This document shows positions 32,689 through 40,718 of a DNA stretch of 64,000 nt, in pieces (positions within the stretch are counted from its first letter, which is position 1; each line of letters starts with the position of its first letter). The notes beneath the pieces are model-generated. The model did not search any database and was not told the DNA's origin. It saw nothing but the letters and a program-made list of their open reading frames with translations. A program made the translations under genes and the position numbers. Source of the DNA: Kiritimatiellales bacterium (GTDB taxonomy: Bacteria > Verrucomicrobiota > Kiritimatiellia > Kiritimatiellales > Pontiellaceae). The stretch covers positions 2,282 to 66,281 of the forward strand of contig QIHI01000055.1 of NCBI GenBank assembly GCA_003230915.1, read 5' to 3'.

Positions 32689-33246
32689 CTAGTCCTCGGA
32701 TATTTTTATTTCGGCAAGTATTGCGCGATCGGCGAGGCTGAGGCGGCCAGTTTGGAGATAATTTTCGATCACGACGAGCGCAGCTCCGGCTTCTTCCATG
32801 CGTTGGAATAGCTGATTATGATCCACTTTTTCCAGATCATCAGGATTTCGGATCTCGCCAAGAGCCAAGCTCCCGAGCGCATTGTGACCAATATGATCCA
32901 TTAACTGGCCGAGCACTTGGGCCGTGAGGCGGGCCTCATCGTCCGGCAGGCGGGCGAGGAGCTGGTCGCAAAAATAGGCATAGCAAATGGTCGGGCGACC
33001 ATATTCCAGCGAGCATCCGTGCAGGTCGAGCCAGCCATAGCGGTCGTCCATGTTTGCTTCCGAGAGGCCTTGCCGTTGGAGCAATTGGGAGAGAAATGCG
33101 CTTTGCAGAGCCTCTTCGCAAATATCCGCGCGACAGCAACACGCCGTGCATAAGCCGCAGGTATCGCTAAACAGCTCTTTCATCAACCGGCAGACGGATT
33201 GCTCCAGCTCAGCATACGGATCCAGAATATCATCGATTGAATTCAT
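32689..33246 (-). CDS. Cys-rich hypothetical protein (CxxCxxCC-like metal-binding)
   Basis: CGLCTACCCRADIC and GCSL...RPTICYAYFC. Confidence 0.65.
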   Translation of the reverse strand: MNSIDDILDPYAELEQSVCRLMKELFSDTCGLCTACCCRADICEEALQSAFLSQLLQRQGLSEANMDDRYGWLDLHGCSLEYGRPTICYAYFCDQLLARLPDDEARLTAQVLGQLMDHIGHNALGSLALGEIRNPDDLEKVDHNQLFQRMEEAGAALVVIENYLQTGRLSLADRAILAEIKISED

Positions 33247-33359
33247 AGGGGCGCAGGATATAGAGAGGCAACGTATCTGCAAGAGGAAATATAATTTAAT
33301 AATTGCATACACTGCGGTTTAATGTAGTTTTTCGCAAATTTAACGGAGTGATGTTGTTT

Positions 33360-34010
33360 ATGCACGAAATAATGACAATCGAGGAAGTTGCTGCATATAT
33401 ACGCGTATCTGAGCGTACGGTGTATGATTGGGCACAAAAAGGGGAACTGCCCGGCGGAAAGCTGGGCACCACCTGGCGGTTCAAGCGCGACGACATTGAA
33501 AAATGGGTGAGTGATCGTCTTTCAAAATCATCTGGGAAAACACCCCCCATCAAATCGCGTACAGAAATCTTTGTATTGACTCCAGAACGGGTGATTTTGC
33601 TGGATACCCTGTCCAAGAAAGAAGTTTTAACACGATTGGTCGACGTGCTGGCGGAAACCCCGTTTGTTAAAAATCGGGATGAATTGGTGAAAGGTATTTT
33701 TGCTCGCGAGGAGCTCATGAGCACCGGCATTGGCTTTGGCATCGGTGTGCCGCATGTTCGGATCGATTCGGTGACGGATCTGGTGATGGCTGTTGCGGTG
33801 GCGAAAAACCCGGTTAACGACTATGCCTCGCTCGACGGTGAACCGGTGCAGATTATCTGCATGCTGGCCGCCCGTTCGGATCAGCACACGAAATATATCC
33901 GCGCACTATCGTCGATCAGCTCCCGCCTGAAGGATCCTGATATTCGCAAGAGCATTATCGAATCCGACGATCCGACCTTTATTCATTCTCAACTCACCAC
34001 CGTGGAATAG
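33360..34010 (+). CDS. Excisionase-like HTH fused to a PTS IIA (PtsN/fructose-type) domain
   Basis: MTIEEVAAYIRVSERTVYDWAQKGELPGGKLGTTWRF; AREELMSTGIGFGIGVPH with the phospho-His retained. Confidence 0.88.
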   Translation: MHEIMTIEEVAAYIRVSERTVYDWAQKGELPGGKLGTTWRFKRDDIEKWVSDRLSKSSGKTPPIKSRTEIFVLTPERVILLDTLSKKEVLTRLVDVLAETPFVKNRDELVKGIFAREELMSTGIGFGIGVPHVRIDSVTDLVMAVAVAKNPVNDYASLDGEPVQIICMLAARSDQHTKYIRALSSISSRLKDPDIRKSIIESDDPTFIHSQLTTVE

Positions 34011-34014
34011 AGCC

Positions 34015-35688
34015 ATGCATGAATTTCAACTCGGTGTTTTAGCGATACTCGGAATCTGCATAGCGGGCGGCGTGATCGGTGCGTGGTTTTTCCAAAAACT
34101 AAAAGTGCCGCAGGTAGTCGGCTATATCGTGGTCGGCGTGTTGATTGGCGACACTGGGTTTGGATTGCTGCGTTCTGCGGATATTGTAGCACTGGGTTCC
34201 TTCAATAATTTTGCGCTGGGGTTGATCGGCTTTCTGGTGGGGGGCGAACTGAGCGGTAGCATCTTCAAGAAGCATGGGAAGCAATTTACCGCCATCCTGC
34301 TTGGCGAGGGGTTGGCGGCTTTTTTCCTCGTTGGATTGGCTTCGACCGTAATCGTCTATCTGGTTTGCCATAACTGGGCGAGCTCCATTGCTGCGGGGGT
34401 CGTGTTGGGGGCGATTGCCTCGGCTACTGATCCCGCCTCAACCATCGATGTACTGTGGGAATACCGTTCCGCTGGGGTGCTTACCACGTCGATCGTAGCG
34501 ATCGTAGCGCTTGACGATGCATTGGCGATGACGCTCTACGGGCTCGGCACCAGCATAGCCTCAATTCTCACCCAAAGCGGTGGCGAGTCCATTGGAGCCA
34601 CGTTAATGCATACCGGCATTGAGCTTGGAGGAGCCATTGTGCTGGGAATCGCCTGTGGCTTTGTGCTCGATGCCATGATGCAGTACCTACCGCAAACCGA
34701 AAAGCGGCTAGGCTTGTCGATCGGCGTGCTGTTGGTTTGCATTGGGCTTTCCGTGACGTTTAATATGGATGTTATTCTTTCCACAATGGCGGTGGGTATT
34801 GTGCTCATCAACCGAGCACCCAACCGCAGTAAAAAGCTGTTCGAGACAGTGCGTTCGTTCTCCACACCGATCTACATTATTTTCTTCGTACTGGTGGGAG
34901 CACGCCTTTCGCTCGGAAATATGCCTAGATGGATTTGGGGACTGGTTGTGGCCTATGTGCTGATGCGAAGCGCGGGGAAATGGTTCGGTGCCTACTGGGG
35001 AGGACGGATATCCAAAGCCGAGAAACCCGTTCAAAACTATCTAGGCATGGCGATCTTTACGCAGGGAGGCGTGGCCGTAGGCCTCTCCATTGTGGCCAGC
35101 AACAACCTCCAGCATATTCAAGTGACCGAAAGCCTGAGCCTCGGCGATATGATCATCTTCACCATCACTACCACTACGCTATGCGTGCAGCTTATCGGCC
35201 CGGCCTTTGCAAAGCTGGCGATCACGAAGGCGGGGGAAATTGGCCGCAACGTAACCGAAGAAGACATCATGGCTGAACTGAAGGTTCTCGATGTAGTTGA
35301 TACCGATATTATTCCATTGCTCGAAGGGTCTCCGGTCAGTCAGGTTGTACAGGGCTTTGCCGAACAGGATACCTTTGTCTATCCCGTAGTTTCCAAAGAG
35401 GGAGAGATTATTGGGGTGCTCACGTTTGACATGCTTAAAGAACTGCTCACCGATCGTGATTCATGGCAATGGATGCTAGTTGGCGACGTCATGCAGCCTT
35501 TACGCCACCGACTCTTTTCTTCGATGAATCTGGCGGATGCACTGGAGGAAATGCGTAACAATCAGGTTGAATCCTTGCCAGTGATCGAAAGTGAGGAAAA
35601 TAAAAAATTACTTGGAGTACTTGATCAACGCGAAGCCCACCGCCGAGTCGGAGCCGAGCTTGTTCGTCGGAAGACCGCGATCACCTAG
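34015..35688 (+). CDS. Cation:proton antiporter with a C-terminal CBS pair
   Basis: About 12 TM helices, ASATDPAST, VALDDALA, QGGVAVGL; two CBS repeats (YPVV...GVLT, LPVI...GVLD). Confidence 0.88.
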   Translation: MHEFQLGVLAILGICIAGGVIGAWFFQKLKVPQVVGYIVVGVLIGDTGFGLLRSADIVALGSFNNFALGLIGFLVGGELSGSIFKKHGKQFTAILLGEGLAAFFLVGLASTVIVYLVCHNWASSIAAGVVLGAIASATDPASTIDVLWEYRSAGVLTTSIVAIVALDDALAMTLYGLGTSIASILTQSGGESIGATLMHTGIELGGAIVLGIACGFVLDAMMQYLPQTEKRLGLSIGVLLVCIGLSVTFNMDVILSTMAVGIVLINRAPNRSKKLFETVRSFSTPIYIIFFVLVGARLSLGNMPRWIWGLVVAYVLMRSAGKWFGAYWGGRISKAEKPVQNYLGMAIFTQGGVAVGLSIVASNNLQHIQVTESLSLGDMIIFTITTTTLCVQLIGPAFAKLAITKAGEIGRNVTEEDIMAELKVLDVVDTDIIPLLEGSPVSQVVQGFAEQDTFVYPVVSKEGEIIGVLTFDMLKELLTDRDSWQWMLVGDVMQPLRHRLFSSMNLADALEEMRNNQVESLPVIESEENKKLLGVLDQREAHRRVGAELVRRKTAIT

Positions 35689-36205
35689 AAGGAGATCATA
35701 CAAAATCTGGTCGTAGGTATCGGGCAATTTTTGGAGGAGATTTGTAGACGCCTTTTTGGTATCAGAACGCCACGGTGGAAATCCGTCCGCGTCCCCGACC
35801 ACCACCACGGTCGACCAAATGTGGTTCATAACGCTCGGCTCCTCAAAGTTTTCAATCTCCAGCGTTTCGCTCGGAAAAATAATCCTTCACCTGTTCTTTT
35901 TGTTTAACCATCAAACAAAATAAAACCACGGCACGGGATCAATCCTTTCCATCGAAGAGCAGGTGCGCTCTTCTACGTTTTGATACAATCGGTGTGGTGG
36001 ATTGACAGAACCTCATTTTGAAATCATTATGAATCCAACAGTGGAAGTAGCTATCAGTGAATATTATGATGAAGTATGTAGATTTGGACTTGTATGATCG
36101 ACCCAAACAAGGTGTTGCATGCTCCTGCCGTAGCATTAATAATAGAGCTGTCGGCAGTGTTTATCCCGTGTCATTTCACCGTCTGGTTGTGTTGCTAGAT
36201 TGTCC

Positions 36206-37516
36206 ATGAAACGCATCCATATCCATCTGTGTTTATTCGTGATTTTTCTTTTCGCTACGTCGGCGAGGGCTGGCTTTGATGGCGATCCGCTCTATGAAAG
36301 CATGGTGGCGACGAACGATATGTCGTTTTTTGCGGTGCGCCCGTTCTACTCGCACGTCGAAAGCCCGGCTACAGAGCGCTGGCGGAAGGACTACCTCTGG
36401 CCGCTCTACACCAAGAAGGGGTTCAAGGAGGAGCAATATAGTCGATTCCTCTTTTTCGGATACTCGCAGGATTTTTCGGAGGACGACGATCGCCATCGGA
36501 ACTGGGTGATCCCCTTCTATTTTCAGGGTGTGGATGCCAACGGGGAGGGCTATTTCGCGCTCTTTCCTTTCGGCGGAACCATCCACGAATTTCTTGGACG
36601 CGACAAAATGATGTTTGTGTTGTTTCCGATCTATGGAAAATCGAGTGTGAACGATGTACGCACCACATCGGTGTTATGGCCGATTTATTCAACCTCTAAA
36701 GGCGAGAAGGTGGATCGCTTTCGCATTTGGCCGATCTATGGCCGGACGGATCTCTTTGGCGAATACCGCAAAAAATTCATTCTATGGCCACTCTACACCT
36801 CGGTTAAATATACCAATGAACGCAATCCCGGCGGCGGCTTTATCTTGGTTCCCATCTACGGACGGATCAAAACGGAGCATGCGGACAGTTTCTGGTTCGC
36901 GACTCCGTTCTTCCGCTACATGACCAGCGAAGAACAGTGGATCGTCCATGCGCCGTGGCCGTTCATCCAGATGGCTGATGGCGAGATACGTAAGCGCATT
37001 GTTTGGCCGCTCTACGGCAAGAAGAGCCTCGACACATTGACTCGGCAATACTTCCTTTGGCCGTTTATCTGGAACAACCAGATCGCGTATGCACGCCACA
37101 TCCAGCACCGACGCTACATCCTTCCGTTCCTCGCCTATCAATCAGATGTCGTGACCCAAGAAACTGAACTATACGAAGTGGGCGATATTTCATCGCGCTA
37201 TTGGAAGATCTGGCCGTTGATGAGCTGGGAACGCACGGACGGCAACACCCGCTTTCGCACACTGGAACTTTGGCCGTTGCGCAACACACTAAGCATCGAA
37301 CGCAACTGGACGCCCTGGTGGACGCTCTACCGCCGTATGAATGCCGATGGCGAGATCGGCCACCATCTCTTGTGGGGATTGTATCGCCAAACGAAAAGTC
37401 CAGAGCGCTATGAATGGAGCTTGCTCAAAGGGTTCGTCGGTTATAAAAAGACACAAAATAACCGTCGTTACCGATTTTGTTTCATGTGGTTCGGCGATGA
37501 GGAGGAACAGCCATAG
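36206..37516 (+). CDS. Exported aromatic-rich repeat protein (hypothetical)
   Basis: Signal peptide (..ATSARA), then 16 [hydrophobic]-W/F/x-P-[ILF]-Y-like repeats. Confidence 0.75.
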   Translation: MKRIHIHLCLFVIFLFATSARAGFDGDPLYESMVATNDMSFFAVRPFYSHVESPATERWRKDYLWPLYTKKGFKEEQYSRFLFFGYSQDFSEDDDRHRNWVIPFYFQGVDANGEGYFALFPFGGTIHEFLGRDKMMFVLFPIYGKSSVNDVRTTSVLWPIYSTSKGEKVDRFRIWPIYGRTDLFGEYRKKFILWPLYTSVKYTNERNPGGGFILVPIYGRIKTEHADSFWFATPFFRYMTSEEQWIVHAPWPFIQMADGEIRKRIVWPLYGKKSLDTLTRQYFLWPFIWNNQIAYARHIQHRRYILPFLAYQSDVVTQETELYEVGDISSRYWKIWPLMSWERTDGNTRFRTLELWPLRNTLSIERNWTPWWTLYRRMNADGEIGHHLLWGLYRQTKSPERYEWSLLKGFVGYKKTQNNRRYRFCFMWFGDEEEQP

Positions 37517-37536
37517 CCCGTACCATTATAAACTAC

Positions 37537-38325
37537 ATGCGCTCTCCCGCTCGCTCGACGCGGCGGTTTGGCAGCCAAGTTCTGCAATTAATGCACGACA
37601 CCGGGCATGCCATGTTCATGCTACTGGAAGCGGCCTACTTTATGCGCTATGCCTTTAGCAAACGAAGCCGTACTGAGACCGCCACACAGATGTTCACCAC
37701 CGGAATTAAGAGCCTTGCGGTGATCACGGTAGTGGCGCTGTTCACCGGCATGATTCTCGCTTTGCAAACTGGGCTTGAATTGCGGCGTTACGGGCAGGAG
37801 GTCTACATCGGTTCCGCCGTCGCCGTCTCAATGATCCGCGAAATGGGTCCGTTCATGACCGGGCTGATTATTGCCGCCAGCGTGGGTTCCGCCATTGCCG
37901 CACAGATCGGGACTATGACTGTTTCGGAAGAGATTGCCGCCCTCGAGGTAATGTCCATTAATCCCAATCGTTTTCTCGTTATGCCACGCCTAGTGGCGCT
38001 CATTGTTATGATGCCGCTTTTGACGGTCTATACCAATATTCTCGGCATTCTTGGCGGTGCGCTGGTCGGCGCAACGCAGCTGGGTGTTTCGGTGCAGGCC
38101 TATATGGACAACGCTACGCAGTTCGCCACCAATAAGGATCTTTACGTGGGCCTGTTTAAGGCGGGGGTGTTCGGTATTGTCATCACGGCGGTGTCGTGTC
38201 ATCAGGGCTTCATGACGACCGAAGGCGCGGTGGGCGTTGGCAGAGCCACTCGCCGCGCAGTCATTATCTCCTTCCTGATTATTCTGGTATTGGGTTATGT
38301 GATAACGAGGTTGTTTTACATATGA
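37537..38325 (+). CDS. mlaE: MlaE-family ABC permease
   Basis: IREMGPFMTGLIIAASVGSAIAAQIGTM..SEEIAALEVM, GAVGVGRAT. Confidence 0.92.
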   Translation: MRSPARSTRRFGSQVLQLMHDTGHAMFMLLEAAYFMRYAFSKRSRTETATQMFTTGIKSLAVITVVALFTGMILALQTGLELRRYGQEVYIGSAVAVSMIREMGPFMTGLIIAASVGSAIAAQIGTMTVSEEIAALEVMSINPNRFLVMPRLVALIVMMPLLTVYTNILGILGGALVGATQLGVSVQAYMDNATQFATNKDLYVGLFKAGVFGIVITAVSCHQGFMTTEGAVGVGRATRRAVIISFLIILVLGYVITRLFYI

Positions 38326-39089
38326 TCCGCTTCGAAAATATTACCAAGGCACTGGGCGGAAAAACCGTGCTCGACCGCATTAGCTTCGAAGTCAGCGAGG
38401 GCGAAACCCTTGTGATTGTCGGCCTCTCTGGTGCCGGCAAGAGCGTAACGCTAAAGCACATGATCCGCCTCATGCAGCCGGATTCCGGAGTCGTGATGAT
38501 CGACGGCGAGTCCATTAACGACCTCGGGCGGTCCGCATTACAGGTGACTCGTACTAAATTCGGTATGCTCTTTCAAAGCGCGGCACTGCTTCAATGGATG
38601 TCGGTTAAGGACAATGTCGCCCTCCCGTTACGCGAACACATGAAAATAAGCGAGGAAGAGATTGAGAAACGCGTCGCTAGCAAATTGAATCTGTTGAATC
38701 TTTCCGATGCAGGCGATAAGTTTCCGGCCAACCTATCCGGCGGCATGCAGAAGCGCGTTGGGCTGGCGCGAGCCATTATCATGAATCCGAAAATCGTACT
38801 CTATGACGAACCGACCTCCGGACTCGATCCAGTTACGTCGCGACGCATCGACGATTTAATCGTGGATATGCGCAAGGAACTCGGTATAACGAGTGTGGTG
38901 GTAACGCACGACCTGCACAGCGCACTCTTCATCGGCACACGCATTATGATGCTGCACGAAGGCCGGATCGTGGAGAACGCGCCTCCGGAAGAGTTTATCC
39001 GGTCGAAAAACGAAACCGTGCAGAGCTTTCTCGAGTCGCAGTACATTACGAAAAAAGGAAAATGGGAAACCGGGTTAAGCCATGAATAA
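38322..39089 (+). CDS. mlaF: MlaF-family ABC ATPase
   Basis: GLSGAGKS, GMLFQSAAL, LSGGMQKRVGLARA, LYDEPTSGLDP, VVVTHD. ATGA overlap with mlaE. Confidence 0.92.
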   Translation: MIRFENITKALGGKTVLDRISFEVSEGETLVIVGLSGAGKSVTLKHMIRLMQPDSGVVMIDGESINDLGRSALQVTRTKFGMLFQSAALLQWMSVKDNVALPLREHMKISEEEIEKRVASKLNLLNLSDAGDKFPANLSGGMQKRVGLARAIIMNPKIVLYDEPTSGLDPVTSRRIDDLIVDMRKELGITSVVVTHDLHSALFIGTRIMMLHEGRIVENAPPEEFIRSKNETVQSFLESQYITKKGKWETGLSHE

Positions 39090-40023
39090 ATACAGGCGCG
39101 AAGTCTCCATAGAAATCTTAGTTGGGTTATTTATGTTCACCGTGCTGATCACACTCGGTGTTTTCACGATCGTACTCAGTAGCGAAAAAATCTGGAAGGA
39201 AAGCTATCAATACGAATTTGTTTTCTCTGAAATCAGTGGTCTGCGTGAAGGGGATAATGTGTATGTTCGCGGACTGAACGTCGGGCGCGTTAAGCAAACG
39301 GATCTAGAGGAAGGCCATGTGCGGGTCTATGTCACCCTCGATGCTCCGCTATATCTGCGGCAGGGGTATATAATTGATGTTGTGGACTCCTCCATGCTGG
39401 GCGGAAAAAAACTTAAAATCTACGAAGGCCCCGACGGTGCGCCGGAACTGGGCGAAAGCATGACGATCCTCGGCGCGAAACCCGTTGATATGATCGAGGA
39501 ACTGGCTCGTGTGATCGGTGGTTTTCAGGCCGTGATTGATGCTGTTAACTCCGGTAAGGGAACGTTGGGCAAGCTACTCAAGGATGAAACCATCCACAAG
39601 AACATGGCGACGATTAGCGAGGATTTGATGCGGATCATGGACCGGATCGAGAGCGGCGAAGGTTCCTTAGGGCAGTTGCTCGTTGCGGATGATGGACAGC
39701 TTTATGCTGATGGGAAGATTTTTATGGCCAACTTGCGAATCATCAGTCAGAACCTAGCCGATGGCAAGGGCACGCTTGGCAAGATGATGTTCAGCTCGGT
39801 AGACGACAACTCCTACGACGATCTTCAAACCACACTGGCCAATATTAGAAGCATCACGCAAAGCATCAACGAAGGCGAGGGTACGCTCGGTCGGCTTGTG
39901 CGCGATGCCAAGCTCTACGACGAAACCACTCTGTTGATCGAAGACGTCCGCGCCGCTGTCGACGACCTCCGTGAGGCTTCGCCAATCACTTCATTCGGTA
40001 GCGTACTCTTCGGAGCCTTTTAG
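39082..40023 (+). CDS. mlaD: MlaD/MCE-family protein with an extended helical region
   Basis: TM plus MCE domain (GLREGDNVYVRGLNVGRV) and four G[KE]G[TS]LG[KQR]L repeats. Confidence 0.88.
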   Translation: MNKYRREVSIEILVGLFMFTVLITLGVFTIVLSSEKIWKESYQYEFVFSEISGLREGDNVYVRGLNVGRVKQTDLEEGHVRVYVTLDAPLYLRQGYIIDVVDSSMLGGKKLKIYEGPDGAPELGESMTILGAKPVDMIEELARVIGGFQAVIDAVNSGKGTLGKLLKDETIHKNMATISEDLMRIMDRIESGEGSLGQLLVADDGQLYADGKIFMANLRIISQNLADGKGTLGKMMFSSVDDNSYDDLQTTLANIRSITQSINEGEGTLGRLVRDAKLYDETTLLIEDVRAAVDDLREASPITSFGSVLFGAF

Positions 40024-40034
40024 GAGCGCGTGCA

Positions 40035-40718
40035 GTGCCACGCGGCAATACAACGATCAAGCAGCTTCGCCGTGCCACTGTTGGCGTTTCCATAGCCGGG
40101 CTGTTTATCGCATCGCTCGGTGCAAGCCTCCGGGAGCCACCCCTCATCCGTATTGGCGAAATAAAGCCCACCATGGGTCTTTCAACCGTGCGAGTGAAAG
40201 GAGTGCTTGAATCCGACGCGCGTCCACTACGAGGTGGAAGTGTCTTCTACATGGTCAACGATGGTTCGGGCCGCCTCCCAATTTTCCTTGCCCAACCTCC
40301 CGCCGGAAAATTACCTATGGCCGGAAGCCGTATTGTCGCGGAAGGAACTCTCGGCCTCGGAACTGGCCATGCGCTTCGCATGAACATTCAGTTCTCCGAC
40401 CAGATTTCTGTGATGCCAGAGAAATTTATTTCCGACTTCAAACTTTCCGATGTTACTGTCGAACAGGATGGTGAACGCATGACCGCCTATGGCCGAGTGG
40501 CCAAGGTTTGGCATCCTGGAGTCGGATCAAAAGCTCCCCATAGAATTATACTTTCTGACCCCAGCGGTTCGCTGGAGATTGTTCATTGGTTCGAGCCGAG
40601 CTGGCCGGTAGAAGTAGGCGACAGGCTGGACGTTCGAGGGTCGGTCGATCTCTACAAGGGGCGGGTTCAACTCAAGATTTGGCAACCCCAAGATATCCGT
40701 CCTTATTCGGGCGGGTAG
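40035..40718 (+). CDS. Membrane-anchored protein with two OB-fold domains
   Basis: N-terminal hydrophobic segment; VRVKG...VNDGSGRLPIF and TAYGRV...LSDPSGSLEIV...VGDRLDVRGSVDLYKGRVQL. Confidence 0.72.
   Translation: MPRGNTTIKQLRRATVGVSIAGLFIASLGASLREPPLIRIGEIKPTMGLSTVRVKGVLESDARPLRGGSVFYMVNDGSGRLPIFLAQPPAGKLPMAGSRIVAEGTLGLGTGHALRMNIQFSDQISVMPEKFISDFKLSDVTVEQDGERMTAYGRVAKVWHPGVGSKAPHRIILSDPSGSLEIVHWFEPSWPVEVGDRLDVRGSVDLYKGRVQLKIWQPQDIRPYSGG

Follow-up and report, generated by a model that had tools for sequence, protein, structure and literature searches.

Debate continues over how phospholipids move from one membrane of diderm bacteria to the other. MCE transporters built from MlaE, MlaF, and a long MlaD only have been reported to be widespread (PMC10665443). 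The long MlaD of the Veillonella type carries a C-terminal outer membrane (OM) barrel, which is absent from the MlaD proteins of the Planctomycetes-Verrucomicrobia-Chlamydiae (PVC) group; how the needle of such a barrel-less MlaD meets the OM was stated as a gap for this group, and two possibilities were raised, namely, that the single terminal strands of MlaD may assemble into a tiny barrel of six strands, as those of Mce1 do, and that accessory proteins yet to be identified take part (PMC10665443). MCE proteins that form needles, among them PqiB and PA3213, are partnered by PqiC-type OM lipoproteins (PF03886, ABC_trans_aux) (PMC13631591). Here we describe a five-gene locus at positions 36206-40718 of a 64,000-nucleotide stretch of DNA (contig QIHI01000055.1; below, "the window" means this whole stretch) from a Kiritimatiellales bacterium of the phylum Verrucomicrobiota, in which the genes of an MlaEFD-type transporter follow a gene for an exported Trp-Pro (WP) repeat protein, here called REP.

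Gene order and transporter type

The source organism is represented by a metagenome-assembled genome (Kiritimatiellales, Pontiellaceae-like) of 1.9 Mb that is 92.7% complete, and all statements on the source genome below hold at this completeness. The locus consists of five packed open reading frames (ORFs) on the + strand, in the order REP, MlaE, MlaF, MlaD, and a gene for a protein with an oligonucleotide/oligosaccharide-binding (OB) fold. Its features are as follows.

36206-37516, + strand: REP, 436 aa, ATG start; predicted exported Trp-Pro beta-hairpin repeat protein of an unnamed family
36206-36271, + strand: REP signal peptide, ~22 residues, ending ...SARA/GF, signal peptidase I (SPase I) type without a lipobox; read from the sequence and the alignment
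36287-37276, + strand: REP repeat array, 16-19 units of ~18 aa; from the repeat logo, the invariant W/P columns, and direct coupling analysis (DCA)
37537-38325, + strand: MlaE-family permease, 262 aa, no STAS fusion; PF02405, TIGR00056
38322-39089, + strand: MlaF-type ATP-binding cassette (ABC) ATPase, 255 aa, its ATG overlapping the MlaE stop; PF00005
39082-40023, + strand: long MlaD with a single MCE domain, 313 aa; PF02470
39979-40020, + strand: hydrophobic C-terminal tail of MlaD, ...SPITSFGSVLFGAF, 14 residues, final residue Phe
40035-40718, + strand: membrane-anchored OB-fold protein, 227 aa, GTG start; PF01336
36002-36030, + strand: candidate sigma-70-like promoter, TTGACA-17-CATTAT, 10/12 in a consensus scan; a pattern match alone

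The REP and MlaE genes are separated by a 20-nt gap (read directly), MlaE and MlaF share a 4-bp ATGA overlap, MlaF and MlaD overlap by 8 bp, and an 11-nt gap, with GGAG ahead of the GTG start, lies between MlaD and the OB-fold gene. The 517-bp gap 5' of REP holds the promoter candidate and, after the preceding gene, a terminator-like hairpin (35954-35973); a gap of 308 bp follows the OB-fold gene. To judge from these gaps and overlaps, the layout fits a single operon. A TTG at 36200 is the less likely start of REP, because its homologues begin with MKR or MRR. A first-pass annotation of this DNA had described five closely spaced genes on one strand, and the ORFs, the junctions, and the Pfam domains bear this out.

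Domain searches placed the three central genes. The permease matched PF02405 (9e-73) and TIGR00056 (1.6e-67; 227.9 bits versus a cutoff of 212.2), the ATPase matched PF00005 (6.7e-33), and MlaD matched PF02470 over residues 41-113 (1e-12; 48.4 bits versus a cutoff of 25.1). The ATPase also matched the MlaF equivalog model (5e-52) with a score of 176.8 versus a cutoff of 441, and since this is below the cutoff, we call it MlaF type and not a certified equivalog. With permease, ATPase, and MCE domain all recognizable by sequence, genes 2 to 4 appear to encode an MCE/MlaFED-type ABC lipid transporter. This is the one MCE locus of the source genome. No match to MlaA (PF04333; the positive controls worked), MlaC (PF05494), or a PqiC-like lipoprotein (PF03886) was found in that genome, which extends to the genome the earlier statement that the locus has no mlaA, mlaC, or pqiC. 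For MlaB, the locus holds neither a STAS gene nor a STAS fusion, the genome at large not having been searched for STAS. The canonical six-component MlaA-F pathway was rejected on the missing MlaA and MlaC, and a Pqi-like system with a PqiC lipoprotein was rejected on the missing PF03886 match. The view of the first-pass annotation that an MCE system needs MlaC/MlaA, PqiC, or stacked MCE rings is outdated, as MlaEFD-only systems with a long MlaD are reported to be widespread (PMC10665443).

We then determined how far the association of REP with these genes extends. Of the 99 Kiritimatiellia genomes sampled, 98 have REP, with rare exceptions in one strong copy. The 201 genomes sampled from other Verrucomicrobiota classes include about 48 with a REP match at E<1e-50. 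Cultured carriers include Opitutus terrae, Horticoccus luteus, and Pontiella species (P. desulfatans, P. sulfatireligans). The order REP-MlaE-MlaF-MlaD was present in all 8 relatives and in all 74 further Kiritimatiellia loci with enough usable downstream flank, at REP identities down to 28%. Of 20 loci from the other classes, 15 kept the full order and a sixteenth had REP beside MlaE only; MlaE in these 20 loci was 32-56% identical, mostly 35-41%. Among metagenomic relatives, two of three had the full order. REP is tied to the MCE genes by gene order throughout the phylum, far beyond chance. Homologues unlinked to MCE genes had been named beforehand as the finding that would speak against a joint system, and the conserved order upheld the link.

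MlaE itself was found in 284 of 301 sampled genomes, many of which have two copies, and the phylum turned out to hold further MCE operon types. We refer to the arrangement of the window as type A, and the source genome has type A alone. Type B operons consist of a STAS-MlaE fusion, MlaF, an MlaD of ~310-340 aa with a hydrophilic end, and a PqiC-like lipoprotein (PF03886). Type C, seen in one Kiritimatiellales genome, comprises MlaE, MlaF, a 162-aa MlaD, and MlaA (PF04333). Examples of these other types in relatives are as follows.

L125:7613-11275 (genome G096), L126, and L132; strand not stated: other MCE operon types
L131:5664-9123 (genome G027); strand not stated: other MCE operon type

In the loci examined, each type goes with its own partner exclusively. 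Since types B and C each have an envelope partner of their own, the partner of type A would be REP.

The repeat protein and its predicted fold

REP had no sequence match in Pfam, NCBIfam, or the PDB, Pfam and NCBIfam were also empty for 10 distant homologues, and a profile of 117 homologues gave 0 matches to PDB sequences at E<=10. The family is sizeable, with 1606 clusters (50% identity) at E<=1e-3 and 533 at E<=1e-30, all of whose source names are "hypothetical." Neither the literature searched nor any Pfam or NCBIfam model describes it, and more than 1,600 sequence clusters join the envelope proteins that need a name.

The protein has 19 x-P-[hydrophobic] sites, 16 of which were used as anchors of a repeat logo. 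Across 501 homologues, the 16 anchors gave R-x-F-x-L-W-P-[LF]-[YF]-G followed by a polar/charged half; the anchor Pro was conserved at 98%, and the residue before it was aromatic in 75%. Repeat positions -4 to +2 were hydrophobic or aromatic, and the remaining positions were 25-50% charged, with Gly in addition. Most of the W and P residues of the motifs were invariant in 27 homologues, and a set of 117 homologues that reaches down to 28% identity still had 16 invariant columns, nearly all of them W or P. F, Y, and W together make up 20% of mature REP. The signal peptide and the 16 aromatic-Pro motifs that had been noticed at the outset are thus real.

The signal is of the SPase I type in the Kiritimatiellales subfamily, including the copy in the window. 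A strict lipobox was present in 52 of 475 REP homologues, among them 32 of the 145 in a diverse representative set; it is the canonical L-x-G/A-C, and the residue after the Cys is mostly Ala and never Asp. Examples of this type are the following.

P0129, P0133, P0139, P0142, P0152, and P0156 (sequence ids): lipoprotein-type REP homologues

These signals would fit a periplasm-facing, membrane-attached protein.

The structure was predicted with AlphaFold2. An alignment of 27 close sequences gave a poor model (predicted local distance difference test [pLDDT], 63), whose Foldseek matches are superseded; with the 117-sequence alignment, the pLDDT was 94.2 and the predicted template modeling (TM) score was 0.83. 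The latter model has a lone N-terminal signal helix, ~42 strands, mostly of 5-6 residues (range, 4-8), and a short helical insert at 362-372. Mean-field DCA on the 501 homologues (effective number of sequences, 412) independently recovered antiparallel hairpin registers centered on WP turns, e.g., 188-201 and 189-200 around W194-P195, and other hairpins centered on polar turns (179-191 with 182-188; 200-211 with 201-210). Model and couplings let us predict with confidence that REP is a ribbon of ~21 antiparallel beta-hairpins, i.e., a beta-meander, in keeping with the beta-hairpin repeat sheet proposed for it earlier. With hairpin centers of these two kinds, one edge of the ribbon is made up of WP turns and the opposite edge of polar turns. 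The aromatic face once ascribed to this sheet has to be given up: around the WP turn, hydrophobic and aromatic residues make up one uninterrupted block, and the hydrophobic surface is therefore an edge.

The strongest long-range couplings linked residues 49-367, 29-373, 29-371, 59-365, and 80-369, and a second group linked 96-404, 100-408, and 108-413; separations of 305-344 residues were enriched about 2-fold over background. This pattern suggests that the ribbon comes back on itself after ~310 residues (~17 repeats), whether as a hoop, as a spiral, or packed in two layers.

No structural neighbor of the REP model was found by Foldseek, the best TM scores being 0.25 in the PDB and 0.29 in BFVD. 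The top look-alikes (OspA, TCP10, WD40, and tail-fiber hairpins) were local, and none of LptA, LptC, LptD_N, AsmA, or the TamB beta-taco was among the top 50 PDB matches. The comparison with LptA/AsmA beta-tacos and OM barrels suggested by the first-pass annotation therefore places REP in neither fold. Readings as a beta-propeller, an OM barrel, a beta-taco, or a solenoid were rejected, since the matches were local hairpins with a TM score of <=0.29. An ESM Atlas model of a related cluster had TM scores of 0.86-0.91 to unnamed clusters, 0.30-0.34 to LptD_N and TamB clusters, and no more than 0.39 to any named family; one of its structural neighbor clusters in the Atlas bears the label Thermodesulfobacteriota. 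Going by these models, REP is probably a new protein fold.

Beyond the family proper, we observed weak matches of the REP profile (E values of 1e-4 to 1e-11) that are partial and lie within ORFs of 600-1300 aa remote from MlaE in other Verrucomicrobiota families; they were excluded from the orthologue counts. Examples are as follows.

G195:C1:339326-339775; strand not stated: weak REP-profile match
G227:C15:66886-68208; strand not stated: weak REP-profile match
G046:C1:388966-389292; strand not stated: weak REP-profile match

REP-like WP hairpin repeats may thus occur as a module in bigger proteins of those families. In one genome (G253), an unlinked REP homologue occupies the C-terminal portion of what appears to be an ORF of 1107 aa without a Pfam domain (L115:5564-8887). 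This ORF could be a fusion or, in a GC-rich genome, an open frame that merely runs on.

The MlaD tail and the proposed role of REP

MlaD has a hydrophobic N-terminal (transmembrane) segment, the MCE domain, and then ~170 aa of repeat- or helix-like sequence. Its closest solved sequence relative is the mycobacterial Mce1 subunit 8fed_B (7e-8). With one MCE domain and a long C-terminal extension that has no beta-barrel domain, it belongs to the long barrel-less type in the sense of PMC10665443. A hydrophobic tail closed all 91 of the 91 MlaD proteins adjacent to REP. It ended in GAF or GAL in most Kiritimatiellia and in xLF or AF in the other classes, and it read ...SP[IV]T[ST]F[GS]S[VI][LF]FGAF in most Kiritimatiellia and ...GPITAVGVxAxxLF in Opitutaceae-like genomes. 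The four genomes checked in which REP is unlinked all had a long type A MlaD with the tail elsewhere, and none of the ~23 MCE-domain ORFs in ten REP-less genomes (ten families) had it. The presence of REP tracks the hydrophobic MlaD tail consistently in both directions. As a separate observation, residues ~155-275 of MlaD hold four ~36-aa repeats with the motif G-x-G-[TS]-L-G-x-L (SGKGTLGKLL, SGEGSLGQLL, DGKGTLGKMM, EGEGTLGRLV), an NCBIfam Leptospira Mce model matches three stretches of the extension, and PF28544 (Helical_needle) matches homologues weakly or faintly.

We lean toward the reading that REP is an OM-proximal accessory subunit of a needle-type MlaFED transporter. In the model that we infer for the location of REP, its contact with MlaD, lipid handling, stoichiometry, and the direction of transport, the type A system would combine the MlaE-MlaF inner membrane ABC module, the long MlaD, and REP as a dedicated fourth subunit. 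The helical extension of MlaD would make a periplasm-spanning hexameric needle ending in the hydrophobic strand. REP, exported by its signal peptide and lipid anchored in part of the family, would offer a ribbon with a continuous row of Leu-Trp-Pro-Leu/Phe-Tyr/Phe turns on one edge and polar or charged residues on the opposite edge. Placed at the OM end of the system, it would touch or dip into the inner leaflet of the OM with its hydrophobic Trp-Pro rim and would take up the C-terminal tips of the MlaD needle, the tails acting as the docking element. REP would thereby be the type A counterpart of the MlaA or PqiC-type lipoprotein that serves the phylum's other MCE types. The role of lipid conduit or OM anchor that the first-pass annotation gave to REP is likewise putative. 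In favor of the subunit role are the conserved gene order, the presence of REP in nearly every Kiritimatiellia genome, the parallel with the partners of types B and C, the co-occurrence with the MlaD tail, the export signals, the predicted hairpin fold with its hydrophobic edge, and the accessory proteins considered for PVC systems in PMC10665443. A more far-reaching version, in which REP represents a new fold and also joins the MCE needle to the OM in a new way, its ~21 WP hairpins closing into a short spiral or a hoop after ~17 repeats, is tentative and in our judgment will rather prove wrong; if true, this would be the long-sought OM end of the barrel-less "long MlaD" systems in Verrucomicrobiota.

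Several results weigh against this subunit role. Outside the core class, REP does not adjoin MlaEFD in five of 23 loci or relatives, and the neighborhoods of the unlinked REP copies share no recurring theme. The co-occurrence counts overstate their support because related genomes are not independent samples. The REP of the window is itself not a lipoprotein, and closure of the ribbon into a ring or spiral is modestly supported by coevolution.

Alternatively, REP could be an envelope protein that is merely co-regulated with MlaFED and makes no contact with the transporter, be it an aromatic repeat binding peptidoglycan, glycan, or lipopolysaccharide or a structural OM-associated protein. Aromatic beta-hairpin repeats often bind cell wall ligands, as the choline-binding repeats do, some REP homologues are unlinked to MCE genes, and partial REP-like repeats occur in much larger ORFs distant from MlaE. 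However, the tight spacing and a gene order kept across classes at 28-35% identity, the co-occurrence of the specific MlaD tail with REP even where the two are unlinked, and the absence of choline-binding or other solenoid repeats from the top 50 Foldseek matches make co-regulation alone unlikely, even if it is the rival to which we give the most weight. An amphipathic, strongly aromatic exported sheet, with the same gene linkage to count on, might also serve as a periplasmic lipid carrier or scaffold, an analogue of MlaC or an apolipoprotein-like amphipathic beta-belt that brings lipids to or from the MlaD needle without a fixed dock. The structural look-alikes of a relative's model include the open beta-sheet of vitellogenin and TamB (TM score, 0.34-0.39), but these scores are below 0.5 and do not come from REP itself. 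Moreover, a long needle-type MlaD leaves a shuttle unnecessary (PMC10665443), the lipoprotein variants favor a fixed membrane anchor, and the hydrophobicity lies on an edge and not on a groove-forming face. We accordingly consider a carrier unlikely as well, by a shade more than co-regulation.

The alternative that fared worst is an integral OM beta-barrel, comparable to TGD4 or LptD, or to the barrel that ends Veillonella MlaD if this were made as a protein of its own. REP is predicted to be all-beta and exported, it has an aromatic motif, ...YRFLFMWFG, near its C terminus, and Foldseek returned weak matches to VDAC and Tom40. These matches reached TM scores of just 0.13-0.17, though, the strands are too short to span a membrane, the hydrophobic positions are contiguous around the turn and do not alternate, and an acidic tail follows the aromatic motif, which is hence not C-terminal. 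Part of the family being lipoproteins, the lipobox variants together with the short strands argue against a barrel, which we regard as very improbable. The OM-proximal subunit of a needle-type MlaFED remains the reading that we prefer.

The OB-fold gene, flanking genes, and comparison with described systems

The last gene of the locus encodes a protein with a hydrophobic N-terminal segment and a match to PF01336 over residues 152-215 (1e-7; 32.2 bits versus a cutoff of 27). A second OB domain was not detected and the halves of the protein were not significantly alike (E value, 0.16), so the "double" OB fold of the first-pass annotation was not confirmed; the protein had no sequence relative in the PDB. 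Its nearest look-alikes in features are archaeal (Thermoplasmatota and Hadarchaeota) and Chloroflexota OB proteins. The gene follows MlaD in many Kiritimatiellales loci, is missing from several Pontiella-like genomes and from every deeper relative examined, and is patchy even inside the genus-level group. It had been counted as a member of the operon, and it does follow MlaD here, but given this patchy presence, we treat it as an accessory or mere neighbor and not as part of the core.

Unrelated housekeeping genes flank the locus. They encode an HTH-EIIA protein, a member of the Na+/H+ exchanger family with a CBS domain, a 2OG-Fe(II) oxygenase, a nucleotidyltransferase of the PolyA_pol family that is probably the CCA-adding enzyme, and DsbD. 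Just upstream (33303-35688), an HTH_17-PTS EIIA(2) fusion and the exchanger-family protein, whose CBS domain is C-terminal, are 4 nt apart and may be a regulatory pair. On the - strand, 32689-33312 is a 207-aa Cys-rich ORF (CGLCTACCC... motif) with no Pfam match at E<=1e-4.

Set against described systems, the transporter core is known, and neither Pfam, NCBIfam, nor the literature searched describes its fourth component, the fold of that component, or the way in which it is paired with a specific MlaD tail. One conserved unannotated gene, with a confidently predicted and unmatched fold, is tied across the phylum to the kind of MlaD for which the OM end is a stated gap, and its presence in cultured, genome-complete strains makes this question directly testable. 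The hairpins of REP are arranged in tandem and antiparallel, like those of OspA, the TCP10/CPAP G-box, MORN, and YD-repeat shells, which are among its best Foldseek matches by E value or probability. Unlike REP, these proteins have no WP-turn motif and no closure at ~310 residues, and they show no sequence relation to it and a global TM score of 0.1-0.29.

Among the OM-side partners, MlaA resembles the proposed REP in serving an MlaFED transporter from that side. MlaA resides mainly in the inner leaflet of the OM, the place proposed for the WP rim of REP. It is, however, an alpha-helical protein whose partners are a short MlaD and the soluble shuttle MlaC, and the source genome has neither MlaA nor MlaC. 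PqiC-type lipoproteins share with REP that they are exported accessories of MCE operons, that lipidation occurs (in part of the REP family), and that a role at the OM end of a needle is proposed, and the other MCE operon of relatives within this phylum does include a PqiC-like protein. They differ in having no sequence or fold relation to REP, whose 430-550 aa are made of WP hairpin repeats and whose window copy has no lipobox, and in the position of their gene, downstream of the MCE gene, whereas that of REP is upstream of mlaE.

Closer to the locus as a whole are the needle systems. Mce1 (PDB 8fed) is likewise a needle-type MCE assembly to which each subunit adds a C-terminal strand (PMC10665443), but it is a heterohexamer of six Mce proteins from a mycomembrane organism and has no REP-like component. 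The MlaEFD system of Veillonella parvula (Grasekamp et al. 2023, PMC10665443) has, like this locus, a core without MlaA, MlaB, and MlaC and a long MlaD, its extension being helical there and helix-like in sequence here; in Veillonella, MlaD brings its own 10-stranded OM barrel, whereas here it ends in one short hydrophobic strand and is accompanied by a separate protein, REP.

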